Below the pieces are notes generated by a model. It ran no database searches. It was not told the DNA's origin and saw only the letters and a program-made list of their open reading frames with translations. Below, in pieces: positions 298 to 38,671 of a stretch of 64,000 bases of DNA (position 1 is the stretch's first letter; every line of letters starts with the position of its first letter). A program made the translations under genes and the position numbers. This DNA comes from Deltaproteobacteria bacterium RIFCSPLOWO2_12_FULL_60_19 (lineage in GTDB: Bacteria > Desulfobacterota > Binatia > UBA9968), in the NCBI GenBank assembly GCA_001798595.1, contig MGSS01000144.1, forward strand, positions 14,032-78,031, given 5' to 3'.

Positions 298-606
298 CTA
301 CCTCGCCCGTGATCCTGCGTAGCGGCGTGCAGCCTTGCGGAGCCGGGAAGATGGCGCCTCAGGCTTGAGAAGCGTAGCGACGAAAGCTTCACGGTCGCGG
401 GCGCTCAAAGTCATGACCTCGTGCTCGTGTACGGTGCGCACAGCGACTTCATAAGCGCTGCTGACCACAAAATCGGTCATGGTGCGCCCGGTGATTGCTG
501 CGGCGCGCAAAAGGAAGGCTTTCTGATCAGCCGTGATGCGCGTTTCAAGCCGCTCCTTCTTTGCCGTGTGGTTACCCTGGGTTTCGTGTGTTTGTCTAGC
601 TGCCAT
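298..606 (-). CDS. DUF1778-family (TacA/ribbon-helix-helix-like) antitoxin
   Basis: 102-aa ORF with ITADQKAFLLRAAAITGRTMTDFVVSSAYEVAVRTVHEHEVMTLSARDREAFVATLLKPEAP, the characteristic DUF1778 antitoxin pattern. It lies immediately upstream of, and translationally coupled to, the GNAT ORF. Confidence 0.75.
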   Translation of the reverse strand: MAARQTHETQGNHTAKKERLETRITADQKAFLLRAAAITGRTMTDFVVSSAYEVAVRTVHEHEVMTLSARDREAFVATLLKPEAPSSRLRKAARRYAGSRAR

Positions 607-783: not shown

Positions 784-1128
784 TCAGAAATTATAAGCCA
801 AAGTTTTGAGCGCGAAGTTGACCACGCTCAGCACAATCGCGCCCAGGATGGCGGGGAGGAAGCCTTGCACGGAGAAGCCGGGCACCAGGGCGGCGGCCAG
901 CTTGAGCATCAGGGCGTTGACCACGATCAGAAAGAGCCCGAAGGTGAGGAAGGTCAGCGGCAAGGTTAAAATCTTCAGGAGAAATCCCAGCGTGGCGTTG
1001 ACCAAGCCGACGACCAACGCGGCGATCAACGCCGCGCCGAAGCCTCTCACGTTGAATCCGGGGACGATGTGGGCCACGATCAACAAGCTCAACGCGCCCA
1101 GGAACCAGTGGGCGATCACGTACATCAT
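784..1128 (-). CDS. Small 4-TM membrane protein, phage-holin-family-4-like (Phage_holin_4_2/DUF360-type)
   Basis: 114-aa hydrophobic ORF with duplicated VPGF..GF motif halves (HIVPGFNVRGFGAALIAALVVGLVNA ... ALVPGFSVQGFLPAILGAIV), typical of this family. Confidence 0.5.
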   Translation of the reverse strand: MMYVIAHWFLGALSLLIVAHIVPGFNVRGFGAALIAALVVGLVNATLGFLLKILTLPLTFLTFGLFLIVVNALMLKLAAALVPGFSVQGFLPAILGAIVLSVVNFALKTLAYNF

Positions 1129-1306: not shown

Positions 1307-1399
<93 letters not shown>

Positions 1400-1475: not shown

Positions 1476-2177
1476 TCACGGTTTTCCCCCCGTCGGCAAT
1501 ACCAGCCTGTAGCCGATGCCCGGCTCGGTCCTGAGAAGTCTTTCCTTGGCGTTGGGCGCTTCGATCTTTTTACGCAAGTGGTTCACATACACCCGCAGAT
1601 ATTGGGATTGCTCTTCCGCATTGGGTCCCCAGACCTCCCGCAATAACTGTTTGTGCGTCACTACCTTGCCCGCGTGCTGCGCCAGAACTTTGAGTAGAGC
1701 GTATTCCGTCGCGGTGAGTTTCACTTCCTGCTTGTTGACGGTGATGGTATGGCTGCTGAAATCGACGGCCAGATGTCCAGCCTGGAAGTAGGGCTCGTCT
1801 TTCTCGGTGGACGAGCGCCTCTGGATCGCCCTTAGGCGGGCGAGCAGCTCCGGCGAGTCGAACGGCTTGGTCACATAGTCGTCCGCTCCCGCGTCCAGCG
1901 CGGCGACCTTCTCTTCGGCGCCGGCCTTCACCGTGAGCACCAATACAGGCACGCGGCTCCATTCGCGCAGGCGCCGGAGCGCGGTCAGCCCGTCGACCTT
2001 CGGCAGGCCGAGATCGAGCAGAACGACGTCGGGCCGGCGGAGCGCGATGTCCGACAGGCCCTGCTCGCCGGTGTCCGCCTCCAGCACCCGGTAACCGTCG
2101 GTTTCGAGCACGACCCGGAGCAGCCGCCGGATCTGGACCTCGTCGTCGATGATGAGCGCCGTAACCTTTTCGCTCAA
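1476..2177 (-). CDS. kdpE: OmpR-family response regulator KdpE
   Basis: Receiver domain (LIIDDE...DVVLLDLGLP...LTVK) plus winged-helix C-terminus, with strong similarity to KdpE. It overlaps the upstream kinase by 4 bp. Confidence 0.8.
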   Translation of the reverse strand: MSEKVTALIIDDEVQIRRLLRVVLETDGYRVLEADTGEQGLSDIALRRPDVVLLDLGLPKVDGLTALRRLREWSRVPVLVLTVKAGAEEKVAALDAGADDYVTKPFDSPELLARLRAIQRRSSTEKDEPYFQAGHLAVDFSSHTITVNKQEVKLTATEYALLKVLAQHAGKVVTHKQLLREVWGPNAEEQSQYLRVYVNHLRKKIEAPNAKERLLRTEPGIGYRLVLPTGGKP

Positions 2178-3766
2178 GCCAGCTCCTCCAGCGCCTCGGC
2201 GCGCATGGTTTCGACCGGAATCGTCAGCGTGAATTCGGCTCCTCCCGTCTCGCGGTTGGCCGCGCGCGCAGAGCCTCCATGAGATCGCACAAAGTTATCC
2301 ACGATCGCGAGTCCGAGCCCCGTGCCGCCCGGAGGGGCGTCGGACGCGCGGTAGAACTTCTCAAAGATCCGCCGCAAGTCCGTTTCCTTCACGCCCGGCC
2401 CCTCATCGAGAATCGCAAGCGTGAGCCGGTCTCCGTCTAAAGCAGCGCGGACGGTGATGGTTGTGCCGGGCCTGCTCCAAGAGGCGGCGTTGAGGAGAAG
2501 GTTATAAAGGCATTGTTCGATCAGAGCTTGATCGAGTCTGACCATCGGAAGATCGTGATCGGCTTCTACCGCGATCTCGTGCTCGGCGACTCCATCACCG
2601 GCCAAGTCTATGGCGGCCTGGACGAGCTCGGCCACATCGCACCAGTCCAGCTTCGGCTGGATGACGCCGGCTTCGATGCGGGTCATGGTCAGGAGGTTGT
2701 CGATGACCCGGCGCAACCGTCGAACCGCGGATTGCACTTCCCGCAGCGTGGCGCGTTTTTCTTCGTCTCCGCCGAGCTGCCTCCCTAAAGCATCGATGCC
2801 GGCCTGCACGGCCGACAGGGGAGTCTTGAGTTCATGCGAGACGCTGTCGAGCAGCGCGCGTCTTAACCGCTCGGAGGCTTCGAGTACCTCGGCGCGTTTC
2901 ACGGCTTCAACCACATGATCTTTTTCCAGAATCAAGCCGATCAGTACCGCGAACGCTTCAAGGAGTTCTGTTTCGCCGCGATCGAGCGATTTTCCGGGAG
3001 CTCGACGAACGCACAACACGCCCATGACGGCGGTACGGCCCTGCAAAGGCAAACACCGGGCGCTCGAATCCCCGCGCGCTCCGATGAATCCGTCCGCCTG
3101 CGACGGATGATCGAAGGCCCATAGGGCAGCGGTCTTCTCCCTTTCAGAAAGAGTGAACGAGCTGGCCGGGTGCGCGAGCTCCGAGAGCGTGTGATCTTTT
3201 CGGCGCAGGAGGAGCGCGGCCTGCGCGCCCGAAACGGACGCGATCAAGCTCACGGCCGCACCGAGTCCGGTTTCCAGGTCCGTCGCAAAGGCCGCCTGAT
3301 GCGCCAGCTCATACAAGGCCGCGGTCCGCCGTTCGCGACGCCGCTCCGCCATTTCACTTGAGCGCAGGCGGCTGGCGAGGTGGCCCATCGCCATCGCGAC
3401 GACGAAGAACGTGGCGAACATCATCGCATCCTCAAGTCTGTCTATGTAAAAGGTGAAGTGAGGCGGAATGAACAGGAAATTCCAGACCAGGGCGCTGATC
3501 GCGGCCAGGATCAACACCGGGGCCCGTCCGAGCTTCAGAGCCGCAGCGACGATTAACAGCAGATAAAGCAGCGCGATCGATAGGTAGCCGGTGAAGGGCT
3601 CAAGGAGCAGGGACGCGACTGTCACCAAAACGACGAGAACTCCCGCCAGGGCGACCTGGTGAATAAAAGAAGCGCCGTTCAATCTTTCAACAGGCCGGTC
3701 CCTTCGGGTATCCTCGCGGGACTTGTCGGGCCGGGCCTCCGGGCTCGGCTGCGCGCCGTCCGCCAT
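2174..3766 (-). CDS. kdpD: KdpD-like sensor histidine kinase, C-terminal half only (4-TM + GAF + HisKA + HATPase)
   Basis: 530 aa. The 4-TM segment resembles the KdpD membrane domain. It is followed by SHELKTPL (H-box) and a DxGxG ATPase motif. The N-terminal KdpD/Usp sensor domains are missing from this polypeptide. Confidence 0.75.
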   Translation of the reverse strand: MADGAQPSPEARPDKSREDTRRDRPVERLNGASFIHQVALAGVLVVLVTVASLLLEPFTGYLSIALLYLLLIVAAALKLGRAPVLILAAISALVWNFLFIPPHFTFYIDRLEDAMMFATFFVVAMAMGHLASRLRSSEMAERRRERRTAALYELAHQAAFATDLETGLGAAVSLIASVSGAQAALLLRRKDHTLSELAHPASSFTLSEREKTAALWAFDHPSQADGFIGARGDSSARCLPLQGRTAVMGVLCVRRAPGKSLDRGETELLEAFAVLIGLILEKDHVVEAVKRAEVLEASERLRRALLDSVSHELKTPLSAVQAGIDALGRQLGGDEEKRATLREVQSAVRRLRRVIDNLLTMTRIEAGVIQPKLDWCDVAELVQAAIDLAGDGVAEHEIAVEADHDLPMVRLDQALIEQCLYNLLLNAASWSRPGTTITVRAALDGDRLTLAILDEGPGVKETDLRRIFEKFYRASDAPPGGTGLGLAIVDNFVRSHGGSARAANRETGGAEFTLTIPVETMRAEALEELA

Positions 3767-3770
3767 AAAA

Positions 3771-5825
3771 TCATTCTAACTTCCGCTTTTCGGGATTGCT
3801 ACCGCTCGGCGCGCGCGCCGTAGGCGGAATGAAAACGCGAATCGGCAGAATCATCATTTCTAAGCCTTCGAATTGAAGCCGCTGCTCCAGCGTGAAGGGC
3901 GTATGGTTGTGAAGCAAGCGGGTAAGAAAATTCTCCCTTTCAAAAACCAGCTTCCCGGCAAAAAAGACCGGCCTGGAGCAATCTCCGGCCACAGACCCGC
4001 ACAATTTCTCCAACTCTTCGATGAGGTCGATCCCTAGCGAATAACGATACTCCGCGTACCAGCCCAGGCAGTTGGCAAATTCCACGAAGCTTTTAAGATC
4101 CTCTTCCTTCGATCCACGCAAGTTGTCGATCTCGCTAAGTCCCTTGAATCGTCCGGAGTCGATTAGTCCAATCGAGACAAAGACGACGTTCTTGAAATGG
4201 TTCGGAAACAGCCGGGCAATGCTGAGCAGGGAATGAACTGCGAGCCCGTCGAAGTCCCTGACGATGAGGACGGCGGTGGGGGCATGCGGCTGCTTAGCCG
4301 GCACCGGATGTTTTAGGTCCGGCCGAAACGGGATATTGATCAGCGTTTCATCAAGGCTCTTCAGCGCCCGCTGCACCTGATCGTAATGCGCCCGGACTAT
4401 ATAGCAGAGAAGAATGAAGCCTGACGTCACCAGGAGCGTGACCCATCCTCCCTCGGCGAACTTGATGATTATCGTGACGATCAGAATAGTCGCCGTGAAC
4501 AACAAACCGAAACCATTCACCAAAAGTTTGCGCCGCCAAAGCTTCTCGGTTTTTCTTGATGCCCACCAATGGCGGCACATGCCCAGCTGAGAAAGGGTGA
4601 AGGTCAGAAAGACATTGATGCTATACATGACGACCAGCAGCCTTACGTCGCCGCCGGTATAAAGGAGAAACGCGACCGAGGCCAGACCCATGAACCAGAC
4701 GCCGTATTGCGCGACCAGGTGGTCGCTTAGATGGGAGAAGCGATGGGGAACCCACGAATCTACCGCCATGTTGGAAAGCACCCTTGGACCGTCGATAAAT
4801 CCGGCTTGCGCGGCGACGAGGAGGATGGTCGCCTCGGTGACCAGCGTTACGATCACCAGAGCGTACGCTGAGTCCGGCGAAAAGAAGTTCCCGTAGACTG
4901 TCGCGAAAAGACTGGCGTTCAAAGTTTTACCCGACTCATGGGAAACCCGGTTCAACAAGTAACAAACCAGAAGGCCGCTCGCCGTGAAGGCGAGGGACAC
5001 GGCCATGTAACGCATCGTTCTTTTCCCCGTCTCGACTCTGGGTTCGCGCAGGGCCTGAAGGCCGTTGCTGACCGCCTCGATGCCCGTGTAGGTGCCGCCG
5101 CCGAGACTATAGGCATGAAGAACGATAAAAACCGTCGTCCATAATCCCAGGGCTTGTATGTCTCCGAGCGTCTTCTGATAGGTGGCGGACGCGAGCGCGG
5201 GAATGTCCGCGGCCTTCGGGCCGACCCCCAGGCTGATCGCGAAAATGTGCGCGACGACAAAAAGGATAAAAATCGGCAGCAGAAAAAGAACCGATTCCTT
5301 GGTGCCGCGTAGATTCAGGTAGAGAAGCAGAAAAATCAAGCAAAATTCGACCGCCAGCTTTGTCCCGTGGATGGAAGCGGGCAGGAAGCTGAATATCTGG
5401 TCGCCGGCGCTGGCGACGGAGATAGTGATCGTCAGCATATAATCCACAATCAGGGCGGAGCCTGAGACCAGACCGACCTTTGGCCCCAAAAGTTTTGTCG
5501 CGACCAGATAGCCGCCGCCGCCCGTGGGGAACAGCTCGATGATGTGGCTGTAGCTCGCCGATATGACAAAGACGGTCAAGGCCATGAGAATCGCTAACGG
5601 AAGCGCGAGGAAAAAATGCTCTCCCAGGGCGAGGTACGCCTCCTCCGGCCCATACGCGGATGAGCTAAGACCGTCCGCGCCGAGACCGACCCACGCCAGA
5701 AAGGCGATGAGCGAGATCTGGTGGAAGACCTTCGGGTCCAGTGGATCTTTGGGCTTGCCGAACAATAGTGTCTTGAGGGATGGGCGCTCCGTTGCGCGCA
5801 ACGCATTTCCCGCTTTCACCCCCAC
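3771..5825 (-). CDS. APC-superfamily permease (12 TM) fused to a C-terminal cytoplasmic USP-like domain; candidate KimA-like K+ importer
   Basis: 684 aa. N-terminal ~450 aa has the APC-family TM pattern (LFPTGGGGYLVATKLLGPKVGLVSGSALIVDYMLTITISVASAGDQ). C-terminal ~220 aa is a soluble alpha/beta region (TAVLIVRDFDGLAVHSLLSIARLF...VVFVSIG). It lies directly upstream of kdpD-C/kdpE on the same strand. Confidence 0.55.
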   Translation of the reverse strand: MGVKAGNALRATERPSLKTLLFGKPKDPLDPKVFHQISLIAFLAWVGLGADGLSSSAYGPEEAYLALGEHFFLALPLAILMALTVFVISASYSHIIELFPTGGGGYLVATKLLGPKVGLVSGSALIVDYMLTITISVASAGDQIFSFLPASIHGTKLAVEFCLIFLLLYLNLRGTKESVLFLLPIFILFVVAHIFAISLGVGPKAADIPALASATYQKTLGDIQALGLWTTVFIVLHAYSLGGGTYTGIEAVSNGLQALREPRVETGKRTMRYMAVSLAFTASGLLVCYLLNRVSHESGKTLNASLFATVYGNFFSPDSAYALVIVTLVTEATILLVAAQAGFIDGPRVLSNMAVDSWVPHRFSHLSDHLVAQYGVWFMGLASVAFLLYTGGDVRLLVVMYSINVFLTFTLSQLGMCRHWWASRKTEKLWRRKLLVNGFGLLFTATILIVTIIIKFAEGGWVTLLVTSGFILLCYIVRAHYDQVQRALKSLDETLINIPFRPDLKHPVPAKQPHAPTAVLIVRDFDGLAVHSLLSIARLFPNHFKNVVFVSIGLIDSGRFKGLSEIDNLRGSKEEDLKSFVEFANCLGWYAEYRYSLGIDLIEELEKLCGSVAGDCSRPVFFAGKLVFERENFLTRLLHNHTPFTLEQRLQFEGLEMMILPIRVFIPPTARAPSGSNPEKRKLE

Positions 5826-5959
5826 ACGCTAACAAGCGGGGGAGCGATCGCCTAATTAAAAGCCCGCACAAAGGCGTAAAAAAAACATTAAAAAACTTCG
5901 CGGCTTTTGTCTTGATTCTTCCAATAGCTCGTCGTAGTCTGAGAATGTTTCCGGCATTC

Positions 5960-6098
5960 GGCCGGATGTCGATTGCTGATAGTCGGGTCCTGTGCAAGGC
6001 GGTCCCGCAAATCCCGTCAGGTCCGGAAGGAAGCAGCGGTAGCGGATCTACCCCTGTGCCACGGGGCAGCCCGGCTGTCAGCAATGGGCATCCTGTCC
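5960..6098 (+). ncRNA. ffs: SRP RNA (4.5S/ffs); ends approximate
   Basis: Contains the universally conserved domain IV motif GUCAGGUCCGGAAGGAAGCAGC (6015-6036). The flanking arms 5964-5982 and 6075-6093 are complementary (helix 5). Its location immediately upstream of dnaX matches the conserved ffs-dnaX-ybaB-recR synteny. A TTGATT-17-TAGTCT promoter-like pair lies at ~5911-5940. Confidence 0.6.
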
Positions 6099-6112
6099 TC
6101 GCTGCGCTCGGA

Positions 6113-6168
6113 ATCTCAGATTTCAAATCTCAGATCTGCAATCTGAAATTTGAGATTTGAGATCGCGG
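6113..6168. repeat. AT-rich imperfect palindrome (22-nt arms, 5-nt spacer) built from TCTCAGAT/TTTGAGAT units
   Basis: TCTCAGATTTCAAATCTCAGAT-ctgca-ATCTGAAATTTGAGATTTGAGA. The arms match at 19 of 22 positions and are unusually low in GC for this genome. It lies between ffs and the dnaX start. Confidence 0.5.
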
Positions 6169-6196
6169 GGCGAGGGGGGCTAGCTGAGGGGAGCGC

Positions 6197-9215: not shown

Positions 9216-10310
9216 GTGGGAACAGCTGAAACAGCTTTGACCGCATCAGCTCAAGTCACGCCAAAACGTCTAAACCTCTTTGAGCGATACCTGACGGTGT
9301 GGGTGGCTCTCTGCATGGGACTAGGGGTCCTGCTGGGCAAATCGCTGCCCGGACTCGTCTCCGCCGTTCGCGAAATGGAGTTCGGCGCCGCCAGCCACAT
9401 CAACGTTCCTATCGCCGTGCTGATATGGCTGATGATTTATCCGATGATGTTGAAGGTGGACTTTGCCTCTGTGCTGGGCGTGGGCAAGCGTCCCGAGGGC
9501 TTGCTCATCACGTTGTTCGTCAACTGGCTGGTCAAGCCGTTCAGCATGGCGCTTCTTGGATGGCTCTTTTTCAAGCGGCTGTTTCTACCGCTCATCGGCG
9601 CGCCGTTGGCGGACCAGTATATCGCCGGCGTGATTATCCTGGCTGCGGCGCCTTGCACCGCAATGGTTTTCGTGTGGAGTTATCTGACAGACGGCGACCC
9701 GGCTTACACGCTGGTTCAGGTATCGTTGAACGACCTCATCATGCTGTTCGCGTTCGCGCCCATTGTCACGCTCCTGGTGAGCGGAGCCTCAGCCTTGACG
9801 GTCCCGTTTATCGTGCTGCTCTACGCGGTGATCCTGTTCATCGTGATTCCGCTGGCGGCCGGTAGCCTGACCCGGGTGTGGCTCGTGCGCGCGCGCGGGT
9901 TGGAATGGTTCGAAAAAACGTTCCTGCCGGCGTTGCATCCGATTTCCATCCTTGCGCTGCTGACCACGCTGGTCATCGTCTTCGCGTTTCAGGCGGACAA
10001 CCTCACCAACCGGTTTTTTCACGTCATCCTGATTGCGGTTCCGATTCTGATTCAGGTCTACTTCAACTCGTGGCTGGTGTATGGTTTGATGCGGCGGTTC
10101 AGGGCCCCCCACAACGTCGCCGCGCCGGGCGCGCTCATTGGAGCGTCGAACTTTTTTGAGTTGGCTGTGGCGACGGCGATTGCGTTGTTCGGCGCGGAGT
10201 CGGGAGCGGCGCTGGCGACGGTGGTGGGGGTGTTGGTGGAAGTGCCGGTTATGCTGTCGGTCTGCTCGTTCTGCAACCGCACGCGCCACTGGTTTCCACA
10301 GGCGGCGTGA
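9216..10310 (+). CDS. arsB: ACR3-family arsenite efflux transporter
   Basis: LNLFERYLTVWVALCMGLGVLLG N-terminus and ~10 TM segments typical of ACR3. It is followed directly by arsC. Confidence 0.8.
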   Translation: MGTAETALTASAQVTPKRLNLFERYLTVWVALCMGLGVLLGKSLPGLVSAVREMEFGAASHINVPIAVLIWLMIYPMMLKVDFASVLGVGKRPEGLLITLFVNWLVKPFSMALLGWLFFKRLFLPLIGAPLADQYIAGVIILAAAPCTAMVFVWSYLTDGDPAYTLVQVSLNDLIMLFAFAPIVTLLVSGASALTVPFIVLLYAVILFIVIPLAAGSLTRVWLVRARGLEWFEKTFLPALHPISILALLTTLVIVFAFQADNLTNRFFHVILIAVPILIQVYFNSWLVYGLMRRFRAPHNVAAPGALIGASNFFELAVATAIALFGAESGAALATVVGVLVEVPVMLSVCSFCNRTRHWFPQAA

Positions 10311-10339
10311 GCGGCGTGGGCTGCGACGCGAGGTGAACC

Positions 10340-10777
10340 ATGAAAAAACGAGTGCTCTTCGTTTGCGTTCACAACAGCGCCCGCAGCCAAATGGCGGAGG
10401 CGTTTTTAAATCGGATGTGCGGCGACGTATTCGAGGCGGAAAGCGCCGGACTGGAGCCGGGGGCGCTCAACCTGCTGGCTGTCGAAGCGATGCGGGAAAT
10501 CGGAATCGACATCGGCGGGAACGGGACGCGCGGGGTGTCGGAGGTCATCGAGTCGGGCCAGAAATTCGATTGTGTTATAACGGTTTGCGACGAGAGCAGC
10601 GCCGAGCAATGCCCCGTTGTTCCCGGCGTCGCCGAGCGGCTACACTGGAATTTTCCCGACCCGGCTAAGTTTACGGGCACCTGGGAAGAAAGACTGGAGC
10701 AGACCAGAAACATCCGAGACGCGATTGAATCTAAGATCGAACAGTTTTGTCCGTCCGGCTGTCGAGCGGTGGCGTAG
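10340..10777 (+). CDS. arsC: Arsenate reductase (LMW-PTP/thioredoxin-coupled type)
   Basis: CVHNSARSQMAEA P-loop with downstream Cys residues. It is 145 aa. Confidence 0.8.
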   Translation: MKKRVLFVCVHNSARSQMAEAFLNRMCGDVFEAESAGLEPGALNLLAVEAMREIGIDIGGNGTRGVSEVIESGQKFDCVITVCDESSAEQCPVVPGVAERLHWNFPDPAKFTGTWEERLEQTRNIRDAIESKIEQFCPSGCRAVA

Positions 10778-12650
10778 GGACGCTTGAACTGCTCGCCTCA
10801 TTTTCCGCCGGCAGAAGAATTCGCACGGTGGTTCCTTTTTGCAAGCGGCTTTCGATCGCCAACGATCCTCCGTGGGCCTGAACGATATGCTTCACGATCG
10901 CTAATCCCAAGCCGGTTCCTCCGAGCTCGCGCGAGCGCGCCTTGTCCACGCGGTAGAAGCGCTCGGTCAGGCGGGGCAGCTCCTTTTCGGGAATGCCGCA
11001 GCCGGTGTCGGACACACTCAGCTCGACAAAGTGGGAATTGGGAGTTAGGGATTGAAAATTAGGGGTTCGGGATTCGGGAGTGGCCCCAATTCCTAATTCC
11101 CGATCCCTAATTCCACCCGACCGGGCCGCGATCGTGATGCTTCCCTTGTCGGTGTATTTGAGCGCGTTGTCGATCAGGTTGATGAGGAGTTGCTGCAGCC
11201 GGTCCGGATCTCCGAGAATAGGAGGCAACTCCGGCTCGATCTGCCGGAGCAGCGCAACGTCCTTCCGCTGCGCCTGATCCTGGAAAATTTCCAATACCTT
11301 GCCGATTAATTCCGCAGCCTGCAGCTTTTCTCTGGCGATTTGAATCTTTCCCGATTCGAGATCCGACAGAGTCAGCAAATCGTCGATGAGCCGGCCGAGC
11401 CTCTCGGAGTGGCGGTGGATGATGCCGAGAAAATGCTCCGCCTCCTTCGGATCCGCCGGCGGAGATCGAAGCAGGGTTTCGGCATAGCCCCGAATGGCGG
11501 TCAGCGGGGTGCGCAGCTCGTGAGACACGTTGGCGACGAAATCGGCGCGAACGGTTTCCAGCCGCTTGAGCTCCGTGACATCGTGAAGGACCAGGATGTA
11601 CCCGAGCGGCTTCTCATCCACGCCTCTCAGGGTCACTGCGTTGACATGGAACCACTTTCCTTCGTCTAAGCAGATATCTTTCGTAAAGCACGCCGTGGAG
11701 CAATCGCAGGCCAGAACCTCCGCCAGGAGTTTTTTCATTTCCGGATGACGCGACAACTCGACGAGCGAGGCGCCGTGGGGATCCGACTCCTCGGGGAGAT
11801 TGAACATCCTTTTGGCATTTTCATTGAGCAGGATCAGCCGCCCCCGGGTATCCACGACCAGAACGCCCTCGGTCATGCATCTGAGGATCGAATCGACCTT
11901 CTCCTTTTCCGCCGTTACGCCGGCGATCGTCTCCTGAATGCTGCGGCTCATCGCATGGAGATTGTGTTCCAGAATGCCGAGCTCGTCGGTCCTGCCGAGC
12001 AAGATCGGCTGCTGGGAAAAGCGACCTCGGGCGACGTTGTCGGAGAATTCCAGCATCCGTTTAATTCTTTGTTCTAAGCGATGGGAAACGAAAAAGGCTA
12101 CGAGCAGTCCCGCCGCCGAGAAGAGCAGCAGTCCGGCCAACATCGCGCGCCGCAAGGAGCTTTCCGCCGCCTCGATGGAGTCCAGAGGGACAGAGAGCCG
12201 GACGATCCATCTGCGACCGGCTTCTCGTAAAAGGACGGCCTGGTATAACATTTCATGCCGGACGGTGGCGCTGTAACGGATACTCGTTCCGCCGCCTTTG
12301 GATGCCGCATCCAGCACCTCCGGCCGCGTCCCGTGATTTTCCATCGTGACCGAAGGTTCGTCCGAGTCGCCCAGCACCTTGCCGCCCAGGTCGATAACGG
12401 TGATGCGAACTCCCAGATCCCGGCCCAGGTCGCGGCAGATTCGATCCAGCGCGGCTCCTTCGAGGCCTACGGGTAGCAAGCGCATCACGATCTTTGCTTC
12501 ATCGCGCATCTTAGCCGACAACGACGAGATGTGAAAATCCTTCACAATCGCCGTGGCGTAGAGATAAAAGAGGAGAAACAGAAGGAGAACGACGGCGAGA
12601 TAGGAGAGGAAGAGCCTGACGACGACTCTATTTTTCCAGGGCCTTTTCAT
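10731..12650 (-). CDS. phoR: Phosphate regulon sensor histidine kinase PhoR (TM + PAS + HisKA + HATPase)
   Basis: SHELRTPLTAI H-box and GGTGLGLAIV G-box. It sits downstream of phoB and is translationally overlapped with it. Confidence 0.8.
   Translation of the reverse strand: MKRPWKNRVVVRLFLSYLAVVLLLFLLFYLYATAIVKDFHISSLSAKMRDEAKIVMRLLPVGLEGAALDRICRDLGRDLGVRITVIDLGGKVLGDSDEPSVTMENHGTRPEVLDAASKGGGTSIRYSATVRHEMLYQAVLLREAGRRWIVRLSVPLDSIEAAESSLRRAMLAGLLLFSAAGLLVAFFVSHRLEQRIKRMLEFSDNVARGRFSQQPILLGRTDELGILEHNLHAMSRSIQETIAGVTAEKEKVDSILRCMTEGVLVVDTRGRLILLNENAKRMFNLPEESDPHGASLVELSRHPEMKKLLAEVLACDCSTACFTKDICLDEGKWFHVNAVTLRGVDEKPLGYILVLHDVTELKRLETVRADFVANVSHELRTPLTAIRGYAETLLRSPPADPKEAEHFLGIIHRHSERLGRLIDDLLTLSDLESGKIQIAREKLQAAELIGKVLEIFQDQAQRKDVALLRQIEPELPPILGDPDRLQQLLINLIDNALKYTDKGSITIAARSGGIRDRELGIGATPESRTPNFQSLTPNSHFVELSVSDTGCGIPEKELPRLTERFYRVDKARSRELGGTGLGLAIVKHIVQAHGGSLAIESRLQKGTTVRILLPAENEASSSSVPTPPLDSRTDKTVRS
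11030..11115. repeat. In-frame low-GC palindromic G-tract (TTAGGG/TTCGGG-like) insertion inside phoR
   Basis: GGGAATTGGGAGTTAGGGATTGAAAATTAGGGGTTCGGGATTCGGG followed by its approximate reverse complement CCCCAATTCCTAATTCCCGATCCCTAATTCC. It encodes an extra ~25-aa loop (IRDRELGIGATPESRTPNFQSLTPNS) between the N-box and G1-box regions. Confidence 0.5.
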
Positions 12651-13341
12651 CGAATTTGTAACCCACTCCCCGGACCGTGAGAACCCATTCGGGCTTGCGG
12701 TCGTTCTTTTCGATTGCCTTTCTCAGCCTGCGGATATGGACGTCCACGGTGCGGGAATCGACGAAGACCTCGCCTCCCCAAACCCGGTCGAGCAGTTGAT
12801 CCCGACTCAGGACCCTGCCGGGATTTTGGACCAGGAATCGGAGCAGCTCAAATTCCTTGAGCGTGAGGCGGACCGCTTTGCCTCTGACAAAAATCTCGTA
12901 AGTCGAGAAGTTGATCTTGAGGGGGCCCTTTTCATAGACCTCCGCTCCCGCGGCCGCGAACGAAGCCTCGCTCCTGCGCAGAATCGCTTTGACGCGCGCG
13001 ACCAGCTCCCTGGGGCTGAAGGGCTTGGTCAGATAATCGTCGGCGCCCATCTCCAATCCGACGACGCGGTCGGCCTCGCCCGCCTTCGCCGTCAGCATGA
13101 GGATCGGCAGCCGGGCGGTCTCCGGCCGCGCGCGCAGGCTGCGGCATAGCTCCAACCCCGACATTCCCGGCAGCATCAGGTCCAGAATCACCAGCTGAGG
13201 CTTTTCCCGCTGGAGCATCTTAAGCGCCTCTTCCCCGTCCTCGGCTTCGACGACCTGAAAGCGCTCTTGCGCCAAGTTATAATGGACGAGCTTCCGTATA
13301 TCGGGCTCGTCTTCGACCACTAGGATTTTCTTCGCAGCCAT
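12628..13341 (-). CDS. phoB: Phosphate regulon response regulator PhoB
   Basis: OmpR family, opening KILVVEDEPDIRKLV. It sits between phoU and phoR. Confidence 0.85.
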   Translation of the reverse strand: MAAKKILVVEDEPDIRKLVHYNLAQERFQVVEAEDGEEALKMLQREKPQLVILDLMLPGMSGLELCRSLRARPETARLPILMLTAKAGEADRVVGLEMGADDYLTKPFSPRELVARVKAILRRSEASFAAAGAEVYEKGPLKINFSTYEIFVRGKAVRLTLKEFELLRFLVQNPGRVLSRDQLLDRVWGGEVFVDSRTVDVHIRRLRKAIEKNDRKPEWVLTVRGVGYKFDEKALEK

Positions 13342-36825: not shown

Positions 36826-38671
36826 GTGCGCCCGTGAAGGCGCCACATCAGCATGGTGAAAGTCCATGCCGGAGTATGCCACAGCTCCGTAGCCGAAGGT
36901 AACTGCGTCGCCCCTAGGCGAGGTGGGGAGCAACCGGAGGCGAACTGTCGGTCCGTAGGAGGACGAACTCGATTCGGCGGGGAGCTGCGACGAGCCTGCT
37001 CATTCATGGCGAAGTCCGAAAGTCGCTGGACACGCTGGCGTGGTGGGTGAAGCGATGTTCAGGCAGCCCACGTGGTTGGAGACGGAACGACGGGAAGGTG
37101 TGGTGCAGTAAGCGGGGAGACCTGCACGGTAGGTGAGCGGTGCAGGAGTCAGAGTCTCCATAGTACCGATGCGGGGCAACCTGCGAGAGGTGCGGGAAGC
37201 AAAACCGCGCTGAGGGAAGGGAGATAGGAAGGTGGAAGCGTGAGCGACACAACGGGGCAAAGCGAAAGCGAAGCGTCGGTAGTGCCCGAAGGGGCTACAC
37301 AAGGCGCAGAGACCCAGGGCCGAGATTGGTCGTGGGTGGAAGCCGAGGTGTGGAGCGAGCGCATGTTGGCGGCGCTGGAGAACGGCGTCAAAGGAGGCAA
37401 ATGGTTTAGCCTGATCGACAAGGTCTATCGTCCGGCAACGCTTGAGGCGGCGTGGCGCAAGGTAGCCGCGAACGCGGGAGCAGCCGGAGTAGACGGGCAA
37501 AGTGTTGAGCAGTTTGCGGCGCGAGCGGAAACGTATCTCGAAGAACTGGGAGAAGCGCTCAAGACGGGGAGCTACAAGCCGCTGGCCGTGCGGCGCGTGG
37601 AGATTCCGAAGGGGCAGGGAAAGCTGCGTCCCCTGGGGATTCCGGCGGTCAAAGACCGCATCGTGCAAACGGCGTTGAAGCTTGTGATCGAGCCGATCTT
37701 TGAGCGTGAGTTCCTGGACATGAGCTACGGTTTTCGTCCGGGTCGTGGCTGCAAAGACGCTTTGCGAGAAGTGGACCGGCTGCTCAGAGGAGGTTACACC
37801 CGCGTGGTGGACGCCGATCTTTCGAGCTACTTCGACACGATTCCTCACGCGCGTCTGATGGAGCGGGTGGGGGAGCGCGTGAGCGATGGCCGGTTGCTTC
37901 AGTTGATCGCAGCGTTTCTGCAACAAGACATCGTCAAGGGACTGGAGAGGTGGACGCCCGTAGGGGGCACGCCGCAAGGCGCGGTGATCAGCCCCTTGTT
38001 GGCGAACATCTACCTTCACTCGCTGGACTGTCATATGCGGGAACGCGGTTATCGGATGGTGCGCTACGCTGATGACTTCGTGGTGCTGTGCCGCAGCGCC
38101 GAACAGGCGCAAGCGGCACTTGCCGAGGTAAAAGCCTGGGTAGAAGCAAATGGCCTGAGTCTCAATGCCGACAAGACCCATGTGGGTGACTGCCGGGAAC
38201 CGGGCCAGGGCTTTGAATTTCTGGGCTATCGCTTCGAGGCGGGGCGGCGTTGGGTACGGCGCAAGAGCATCAGAGCGCTGCGTGACCGTATCCGGGCCAA
38301 GACCAGTCGCACACGGGGAGACAGTCTGCGTCATATGATTGCGGACTTGAACCCGCTGCTCAAGGGCTGGTTCGGCTACTTCAAGCATGCTCATCCGATG
38401 ACCTTTAGCGGGATGGACGGCTTTACTCGCAGACGGCTGAGGGCGGTCCTGCGCAAGCAGGAGAAACGCCCTGGCCTGGGTCGGTGTCTGGCCGATCATC
38501 TTAGGTGGTCCAAAGTTTTCTTTGCCGACTTGGGACTCTTCACCATGACGGAGGCCCATGCACTGGCAAGCCGATCCCGATGAGGAAACCACCGACTGGA
38601 GAGCCGTGTGCGGGAGAACCGCACGCACGGTTCGGAGGGCGGGGAGAGCGAAAGCTCTTCCCGACCCCTAT
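36826..38671 (+). mobile_element. Bacterial class C (IIC) group II intron, full length (~1.85 kb)
   Basis: 5' end GTGCGCC (36826). The IEP ORF sits in domain IV. Domain V GAGCCGTGTGCGGGAGAACCGCACGCACGGTTC (38603-38635). Domain VI has a bulged A (CCGACCCC). The 3' end is ...CTAT (38671). It is inserted directly after a hairpin, as IIC introns do. Confidence 0.75.
37240..38583 (+). CDS. Group II intron-encoded reverse transcriptase/maturase (no endonuclease domain)
   Basis: RT blocks including YADDFVV, plus an X/maturase domain. It is 447 aa and lacks an HNH/En C-terminus, consistent with class C. Confidence 0.9.
   Translation: MSDTTGQSESEASVVPEGATQGAETQGRDWSWVEAEVWSERMLAALENGVKGGKWFSLIDKVYRPATLEAAWRKVAANAGAAGVDGQSVEQFAARAETYLEELGEALKTGSYKPLAVRRVEIPKGQGKLRPLGIPAVKDRIVQTALKLVIEPIFEREFLDMSYGFRPGRGCKDALREVDRLLRGGYTRVVDADLSSYFDTIPHARLMERVGERVSDGRLLQLIAAFLQQDIVKGLERWTPVGGTPQGAVISPLLANIYLHSLDCHMRERGYRMVRYADDFVVLCRSAEQAQAALAEVKAWVEANGLSLNADKTHVGDCREPGQGFEFLGYRFEAGRRWVRRKSIRALRDRIRAKTSRTRGDSLRHMIADLNPLLKGWFGYFKHAHPMTFSGMDGFTRRRLRAVLRKQEKRPGLGRCLADHLRWSKVFFADLGLFTMTEAHALASRSR

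Follow-up and report, generated by a model that had tools for sequence, protein, structure and literature searches.

A putative kimA-kdpD'-kdpE potassium-uptake operon in a Binatia-type bacterium, and the possible re-purposing of KdpD/KdpE from the Kdp pump to a KimA-type symporter

We analysed a 64,000-nucleotide stretch (hereafter the window) of contig MGSS01000144.1 from Deltaproteobacteria bacterium RIFCSPLOWO2_12_FULL_60_19, a metagenome-assembled genome (MAG) whose close relatives carry the label Candidatus Binatia. Our subject is a set of three open reading frames (ORFs) that lie head to tail, tightly packed, on the minus strand. The first is a 684-aa ORF for a predicted KimA-like K+/H+ symporter (kimA, 3771..5825; likely start at GTG 5819). 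It is followed by a 530-aa ORF, here called kdpD' (2174..3766), for a histidine kinase with four transmembrane (TM) segments (DUF4118), a GAF domain, a DHp domain containing H311, and a CA domain. The last is a 233-aa ORF for an OmpR/PhoB-family response regulator (kdpE, 1476..2177). Only 4 nt separate the permease stop from the kinase start, and the kinase gene shares its last 4 nt with the regulator gene. The upstream boundary is a signal recognition particle (SRP) RNA gene on the plus strand (5981..6079; Rfam RF00169, 72.8 bits), beyond which lie dnaX, ybaB and recR. Downstream of kdpE are a tRNA-Ser gene (1307-1399, plus strand) and, as the boundary on that side, a gene for a Phage_holin_4_2-family membrane protein (784..1128, minus strand; PF04020).

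The original prediction for this locus, drawn from its letters and translations, read it as a split or truncated KdpD/KdpE system wired to an APC-family transporter with a Usp-like tail in place of kdpFABC. Within the 64-kb window the absence of kdpFABC was borne out: the P-type ATPase signature DKTGT does not occur, and phmmer searches with Binatia Kdp proteins returned no homologues of KdpA, KdpB, KdpC or KdpD-N.

The permease has a single Pfam match, AA_permease_2 (aa 72-454), which leaves its last ~200 residues unmatched, and source annotations read 'amino acid transporter'. Its sole PDB match is 6S3K, the KimA K+/H+ symporter of Bacillus subtilis (phmmer E 1.2e-61, aa 16-493). The residues that coordinate or gate K+ in KimA are D36, Y43, D117, T121, S125, T230, E233 and Y377 (bioRxiv 10.1101/2023.07.05.547876); in our alignment all eight are identical in the permease, as D51, Y58, D128, T132, S136, T247, E250 and Y401. 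The eight are invariant in 57 close homologues, and Y58, S136, T247 and E250 remain nearly invariant (≥90%) over 40 diverse ones. A TM domain (~aa 16-477) is followed by a C-terminal Usp/PPAT-like cytosolic domain (~aa 478-670), and this architecture of TM domain plus ~190-aa tail is kept among homologues down to ~31% identity. With the permease as query, a library of 50%-identity representatives yielded 942 clusters below E 1e-30. Together, these comparisons identify the permease as a homologue of the KimA/KUP-type K+/H+ symporters with a complete K+ site, and its predicted activity is K+ uptake coupled to H+. The suggestion that this APC permease is a KimA-like K+ importer therefore stood, at the level of homology.

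The NCBI protein that corresponds to the transporter (P0001) has 682 aa and starts at GTG 5819. The window transporter also has an N-terminal extension of ~13 residues, VKAGNALRATERP (5781-5825), that is missing from homologues; a gene formerly upstream, perhaps usp, may have disappeared from the window, leaving its start fused to kimA.

The original prediction correctly placed the permease upstream on the same strand. The cytoplasmic tail measures ~190-207 aa (aa 478-684), not the ~220 aa given there. The tail sequence alone matched nothing in the PDB, no part of the 684-aa protein matched PF00582 (E ≤ 0.1 for the tail), and the Usp ATP motif G-x2-G-x9-G-(S/T) is absent from the tail. Its structure was predicted with AF2 on 32 diverse homologues (pLDDT 91.3); an earlier model from 13 close homologues reached a pLDDT of 44.5 and was discarded. 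The best Foldseek match of the retained model was KimA 8b70_A (E 7.9e-5, probability 1.00). Usp structures ranked after it (3fg9, the KdpD Usp domain 7ji4, 4wny and 6hcd; E 5e-4 to 3e-3), and the C-terminal domains of cation-chloride cotransporters were also among the matches. The tail is accordingly modelled as a Usp-like α/β (HUP-class) fold and, because KimA is its best fold match with Usp proteins second, is the native, ancestral cytosolic domain of the KimA/KUP family. It had been proposed to resemble the Usp module missing from KdpD; the likeness in fold held, but the domain is KimA's own. A relocated or replacement KdpD-Usp domain was rejected, since B. subtilis KimA and the kimA copies beside full-length kdpD have the same tail.

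In KimA, c-di-AMP is bound in a pocket that includes R337, P479 and H579-N580-Q581-S582, with Y118 and N237 as coupling residues (PMC10284832). Both coupling residues are kept in the permease (Y129 and N254), H579-N580-Q581-S582 corresponds to H639-N640-H641-T642 (HN-x-T), and the R337 position is occupied by H361, with R362 next to it. Control of the transporter by a nucleotide acting on the tail, perhaps c-di-AMP, is plausible from these alignments. Searches at gathering or permissive thresholds found no c-di-AMP riboswitch or other RNA leader upstream of kimA.

The kinase matches DUF4118 (39-144), GAF_3 (168-281), HisKA (302-367) and HATPase_c (412-519). The same Pfam scan detected neither PF02702, the KdpD N-terminal domain with the Walker A/B motifs of the serine kinase, nor PF00582, and the ~11 residues ahead of the linker leave no sequence able to hold a Usp domain. 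The NCBIfam KdpD model is matched over positions 399-885 of 895 only (258 bits). The kinase aligns to residues 377-890 of E. coli KdpD at 30% identity, and its residues 12-530 align to residues 376-892 of P0347, a full-length 892-aa Binatia KdpD, at 65%. All of these results agree with its earlier description as the C-terminal half of KdpD, devoid of the KdpD-N and Usp domains.

The 120 best homologues of the kinase (61-79% identity) comprise 81 truncated proteins of ~496-557 aa with the same four domains and 38 full-length proteins of ~892 aa that contain PF02702, with or without Usp; the two forms are similarly close to the window protein. Some short forms retain the start of full-length KdpD (MxxxxRPDPDALLAxLR), and the N-termini of others run into a degenerate Walker A, GMGPGVAKTYTML. 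The N-terminal remnant joins the linker preceding TM1 directly; in the window kinase, MADGAQPSPEA is followed immediately by RPDKSREDTRRDRPVERLNGASFIHQ. At least three different deletion junctions occur among the truncated N-termini. The alignments indicate that kdpD' derives from a genuine KdpD by a natural internal deletion (~Δ12-375) that kept the reading frame. A simple 5' truncation was rejected, as many kdpD' proteins hold the KdpD N-terminal peptide. Because the junctions differ, the deletion probably arose more than once. A neighbor-joining tree of 119 kinase C-terminal halves interleaved truncated and full-length forms; it carried no support values and was not relied upon, and given its failure to separate the two forms we do not claim a single origin of the truncated kinases.

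Several kinases in this set have features of their own. One truncated class (P0280, P0286, P0287, P0295; L169 10001-11638) keeps residues ~1-45 with the degenerate Walker A GMGPGVAKT. The SRP-recognition element of E. coli KdpD is placed at residues 22-48 (PMC2440551), and by analogy a role in SRP recognition may explain why these residues are retained. Two relatives show signs of further erosion: at L171 (9355-9535) the kinase begins MPINEF and the remnant of the KdpD N-terminus, MPNPDVLLAKLSEQ, lies in another frame, and at L168 (10111-11674) the kinase is broken into 358 + 123 aa. A collection of 5.8 billion proteins contains the neighbouring transporter (P0001) but, of the window kinase, just a fragment of 359 aa (P0281, 100% identity) and no full-length entry.

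The regulator contains Response_reg and Trans_reg_C domains, is 51% identical to E. coli KdpE over its full length, and is orthologous (426 bits) to the KdpE of a complete kdp operon in a relative (L162). The DNA-contact residues of E. coli KdpE, R193, R200 and T215 (PMC3264566), all have identical equivalents in the aligned window protein. These comparisons point to a close KdpE relative, as the original prediction had it.

Comparison with related contigs places the three genes at the site of a larger potassium island. At L167, whose kimA1 is 83% identical to the window gene, dnaX is followed in divergent orientation by kimA1, kimA2, a gene for a 223-aa receiver (REC) protein, kdpF, kdpA, kdpB and kdpC. 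In L162 the series continues with orf107, kdpD (892 aa), kdpE and the holin_4_2 gene, which in the window, too, comes after kdpE. The island of sister genomes thus reads kimA1-kimA2-REC-kdpFABC-orf107-kdpD-kdpE and occupies the slot between dnaX/SRP RNA and the holin-like gene where the window has kimA1, kdpD' and kdpE. Synteny on the dnaX side is common to L166, L167, L169, L170 and L171, and the holin_4_2 gene also follows kdpE in L162 and L170. Because sister genomes hold the full island in the same chromosomal slot, the window operon is best described as a kimA-kdpFABC-kdpDE island minus its pump genes and minus the N-terminal half of its sensor.

The reduced arrangement recurs on many independent contigs. 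Three NCBI MAG assemblies, GCA_016193465.1, GCA_023250495.1 and GCA_001799125.1 (L169, L170, L171), have kimA, kdpD' and kdpE diverging from dnaX; others have kimA2, orf107, kdpD' and kdpE (L004), usp, kimA2, kdpD' and kdpE (L082), or APC-Usp, usp, kimA1, kdpD' and kdpE (L163, L168). All eight kdpD' loci (the window and these seven) have a kimA-like gene as their immediate upstream neighbour, and their flanks, examined over up to 10 kb, contain no kdp pump genes. At the three Binatia loci with full-length kdpD (L085, L162 and the P0363 contig), kdpFABC is directly upstream in every case. A further 16 kimA/kdpD' pairs are predicted because the two proteins come from contigs of identical length, and kimA-like genes also stand beside full-length kdpDE in more distant lineages (L098, L104, L123).

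Other components of these islands deserve mention. The 223-aa protein is a stand-alone receiver with weak TPR hits, encoded before kdpF behind a KdpE-box promoter (L162 4134-4805; L167 12291-12962). The product of orf107 (107 aa) has no Pfam match; its gene lies in the kdpC-kdpD interval (L162 9612-9935) and persists between kimA and kdpD' in L004 (2462-2791). Upstream of kimA1, relatives also carry a second permease family of ~612 aa that combines AA_permease_2 with a genuine PF00582 Usp domain, together with a stand-alone usp (L163 5246-7950, L166 5484-7985, L168 5362-7973, L001 7451-9974); the same promoter motif lies ahead of them.

That motif includes a candidate KdpE site. In E. coli the half-sites of the KdpE site are two 6-bp T-rich direct repeats with 5 bp between them (PMC3264566), and the MG1655 sequence reads TTTATA-CTTTT-TTTACA. 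Ahead of the window kimA, on the minus strand, the direct repeat TTTAAT-GTTTT-TTTTAC (5876..5892) has the same 6-5-6 architecture, its two T-rich 6-bp half-sites being 11 bp apart. A conserved element, TTTTAATTAGGC (5850..5861, minus strand), lies 14 bp downstream of the repeat, and its last six bases (TTAGGC) form a putative -35; a putative -10, TTAGCG (5827..5832, minus strand), follows TTAGGC after 17 bp and precedes GTG 5819 by 7 nt. Across the 64-kb window the complete composite pattern is found at this one place, and 100 shuffled sequences contain no copy of it. The TTTTAATTAGGC element is near-invariant across at least 15 related promoters, at fixed spacing from the repeat. In relatives the composite motif precedes kimA-like, usp and APC-Usp genes, the REC-kdpFABC unit in L162 and L167, and kdpF in L005 and L167, with unchanged distances to a start codon. 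At L170 (7243-7916) the orthologous promoter is present, but ~630 nt away from kimA.

The spacing of a -10-like hexamer, 6-8 nt and a start codon is repeated in L001, L004, L005, L082, L162, L163 and L167. Because the hexamer is so close to the start codon, this geometry suggests that the kimA transcript is leaderless. A second element, TTAGAAT (3773..3779, minus strand), lies 6 nt before the kdpD' ATG (3766) and is a possible internal leaderless promoter for kdpD'-kdpE that may give basal expression of the sensor. Similarly, GATATAAT-N6-ATG fronts full-length kdpD in L162 and kdpD' in L163 and L168, and TTAGAAT-N6 is found in L082 and L169. A generic sigma-70 and terminator scan returned nothing useful on the minus strand and did not call the putative -10.

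Taken together, these results favour the interpretation, to which we assign a probability of about 0.7, that the window encodes a compact K+-uptake operon of a Binatia-type bacterium in which KdpD'/KdpE would control transcription of kimA. Under this model, K+ scarcity would act through the TM/GAF part of KdpD' to turn on the kinase (H311), and phosphorylated KdpE would bind the TTTAAT-N5-TTTTAC repeat ~65 bp upstream of the start codon. Activation of a weak leaderless promoter would then yield more kimA, with kdpD'-kdpE raised by read-through and the weak internal promoter perhaps supplying a basal level of sensor. The KimA-like protein would import K+ together with H+, and its own cytosolic domain could exert fast post-translational control, possibly via c-di-AMP. 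In E. coli, KdpD from which the N-terminal domain has been removed still reacts to K+ limitation but represses poorly at high K+ (PMC2714519). The N-terminal half of E. coli KdpD is a serine kinase that phosphorylates KdpB (PMC11018627); loss of the pump would remove this target, which could account for the repeated loss of that half. The original prediction of a K+-uptake module survives as far as sequence goes; its implication of a newly wired system does not, the operon being a deletion derivative of the kimA-kdpFABC-kdpDE island.

Several observations weigh against this interpretation. K+ transport, KdpE binding and K+-dependent expression are all predictions from sequence, and the promoter hexamers were assigned by eye. 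The half-sites (TTTAAY) differ from those of E. coli (TTTATA/TTTACA), and the best NCBIfam match of the regulator, KdpE, scores 249 bits against a cutoff of 325 bits. The kimA1 of L167, the closest orthologue beside a full kdp operon, has no box; therefore, KdpE control is not universal for kimA copies. In a set of 80 kimA-like loci at species level, drawn from many phyla, a KdpD-C-like kinase with an OmpR-type regulator adjoins the transporter gene in only 6. One of the six is from Binatia and five are from Acidobacteriota, where the genes are oriented in various ways and the regulators are not evident KdpE proteins; the linkage of kimA to a KdpD-C-type pair is lineage-restricted. The neighbor-joining tree, without support values, leaves the number of deletion events uncertain. 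Finally, our view covers 64 kb, and kdpFABC, a full-length kdpD or a stand-alone KdpD-N/Usp could be elsewhere in the genome.

This last point bears on the strongest of the rival explanations, which we nevertheless regard as unlikely: that KdpD is split, the genome encoding kdpFABC at another site along with a free-standing serine kinase (KdpD-N/Usp) or another KdpD of full length, so that KdpD'/KdpE mainly regulates the pump and its adjacency to kimA is a leftover of the island. In some species the serine-kinase and histidine-kinase halves are known to be separate polypeptides (PMC11018627), and truncated and full-length KdpDs of similar identity coexist in Binatia. On the other hand, the pump genes are gone from the exact site where relatives have them, kdp genes are missing from the flanks (up to 10 kb) of all eight kdpD' loci, and in the window the three genes are closely packed with a KdpE-box promoter immediately ahead of kimA. 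Co-regulation of kimA would in any event remain compatible with a split KdpD.

An improbable alternative is that the composite motif is a lineage-specific type of promoter or UP-element, or the site of another regulator, and that kimA is independent of KdpD'/KdpE. Promoters often have AT-rich tracts upstream, the half-sites differ from the E. coli ones, KdpE binding at the motif is a prediction, and copies of the motif also stand ahead of usp and APC-Usp genes that have no two-component system nearby (L001). Yet its single occurrence in 64 kb is ahead of kimA, its 6-5-6 direct-repeat geometry agrees with KdpE, and every clear instance in relatives precedes a potassium-island gene, including kdpF, the canonical KdpE target.

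We give very little credence to a permease that carries amino acids, polyamines or another cation under a two-component system sensing a signal other than K+: AA_permease_2 as sole Pfam match and the database names 'amino acid transporter' and 'APC family permease' would fit it, but B. subtilis KimA likewise bears the latter label, KimA is the only PDB sequence match, with 8/8 K+ residues, and several lineages have the gene in a cluster with kdp genes. Equally hard to credit is a decaying, non-functional kdpD'-kdpE relic of pump loss, to which the deletion origin and the damaged L171 and L168 kinases might point, because the H (phospho-accepting His), N, G1 and G2 box residues are kept in 80 of 80 truncated homologues, all domains persist in the 81 truncated forms, the window frames are intact with translational-coupling overlaps, and the same outcome was reached through different junctions.

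Beyond the window operon itself, we tentatively entertain, at somewhat less than even odds, a broader scenario in which KdpD/KdpE has repeatedly exchanged the Kdp pump for a KimA-type symporter as its target in Binatia, and perhaps in Acidobacteriota, with the pump-directed serine-kinase/Usp half excised in frame at each pump loss.

Elsewhere in the window, the interval between the SRP RNA gene and dnaX contains a long near-perfect hairpin or palindrome (6089-6183) with short tcaaatctgagatt-type units, for which Rfam returned sub-threshold microRNA-like matches only. A group II intron spans 36907-38671 (RF02001 domains 36907-37106, RF00029 38599-38671), with a 447-aa ORF in between (37240-38583, plus strand). 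A TacA-type antitoxin gene (298-606, minus strand; PF08681) lies where its GNAT-toxin partner would fall at or beyond the window edge. The stretch 9216-13341 encodes an ACR3/SBF-type permease (9216-10310) and an LMWPc ArsC-like phosphatase (10340-10777), which adjoin an sCache-PAS histidine kinase (10731-12650, minus strand) and an OmpR-type regulator (12628-13341, minus strand). This kinase/regulator pair (10731-13341) is probably PhoR/PhoB, because PhoU adjoins it in relatives.

All parts of the operon belong to known families (KimA/KUP, KdpD and KdpE). The window permease shares with B. subtilis KimA (YdaO; 6S3K, 8B70/8B71) a LeuT-fold TM domain, the eight K+ residues and a homologous C-terminal domain, as well as Y118, N237 and the H-N-x-S/T pocket residues linked to inhibition by c-di-AMP. 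The phmmer alignment spans the TM domain only, however, and the window tail (~190-207 aa versus ~140 aa) is recognisable by fold only. B. subtilis kimA is under a c-di-AMP riboswitch, whereas the window kimA, where none was found, shares an operon with a two-component system. The APC-Usp fusions of the potassium islands, neighbours of kimA in L163, L166, L168 and L001 that, like the stand-alone usp, have the same promoter motif, resemble the window permease in pairing an APC permease with a cytosolic tail of nucleotide-binding type. They differ in belonging to another permease family (~35 bits against the window protein) and in having a genuine Pfam Usp domain, and none occurs in the window.

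Compared with E. coli KdpD/KdpE-kdpFABC, the TM/GAF/DHp/CA core and the regulator are alike, a T-rich 6-5-6 repeat lies upstream, and the sensor genes are at the 3' end of the presumed target operon. In contrast to E. coli, the window locus has no KdpD-N, Usp domain or kdpFABC, and a secondary transporter takes the place of the P-type ATPase pump as presumed target. The short and split KdpDs surveyed by Silberberg et al. in 2024 (PMC11018627) exhibit the same modular loss or separation, and a chain consisting of TM/GAF/DHpCA only is listed. Their survey covered species with an annotated Kdp pump only; the serine-kinase domain was preserved in almost all versions, and chains with the histidine kinase alone had a separate KdpD/Usp chain as partner (PMC11018627). 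Unlike those variants, the histidine-kinase-only form in the window is tied to kimA at a site where the pump was deleted. The laboratory truncations R12-D228 and R12-W395 of E. coli KdpD (PMC2714519) have boundaries nearly those of the natural kdpD' (~Δ12-375 of 892 aa); what sets the natural forms apart is their conservation in many lineages. In the open-access literature we found no description of a conserved kimA-kdpD'-kdpE operon, of a histidine-kinase-only KdpD at a pump-deleted locus, of repeated in-frame excision of the KdpD-N/Usp module, or of a KdpE-type promoter common to kdpF and kimA-like genes.

KdpD/KdpE, one of the two-component systems found most widely in bacteria, is regarded as the dedicated regulator of KdpFABC. 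The locus described here indicates that the transcriptional arm of KdpD (TM/GAF/histidine kinase plus KdpE) can apparently be retained with a different class of K+ importer. That the N-terminal half was lost together with the adjacent pump genes fits the 2024 result that the serine kinase acts on KdpB. KimA-type transporters, known in Firmicutes as riboswitch- and c-di-AMP-controlled proteins, also belong to the kdp potassium islands of uncultured soil phyla, and thousands of database entries now called 'amino acid transporter' or 'DUF4118 domain-containing protein' could receive better names. The natural 'ΔN' KdpD variants and the candidate KdpE operator offer material for studying K+ sensing without the N-terminal domain. 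If KdpD/KdpE has indeed been re-purposed, the two functions of KdpD would have been separated in nature, and the KdpE regulon would be broader, taking in kimA paralogues, usp, APC-Usp genes and the REC protein; KdpD' would set transcription, and the Usp-like domain of the transporter, possibly binding c-di-AMP, would serve as a fast brake, as KdpD-N does for KdpB.

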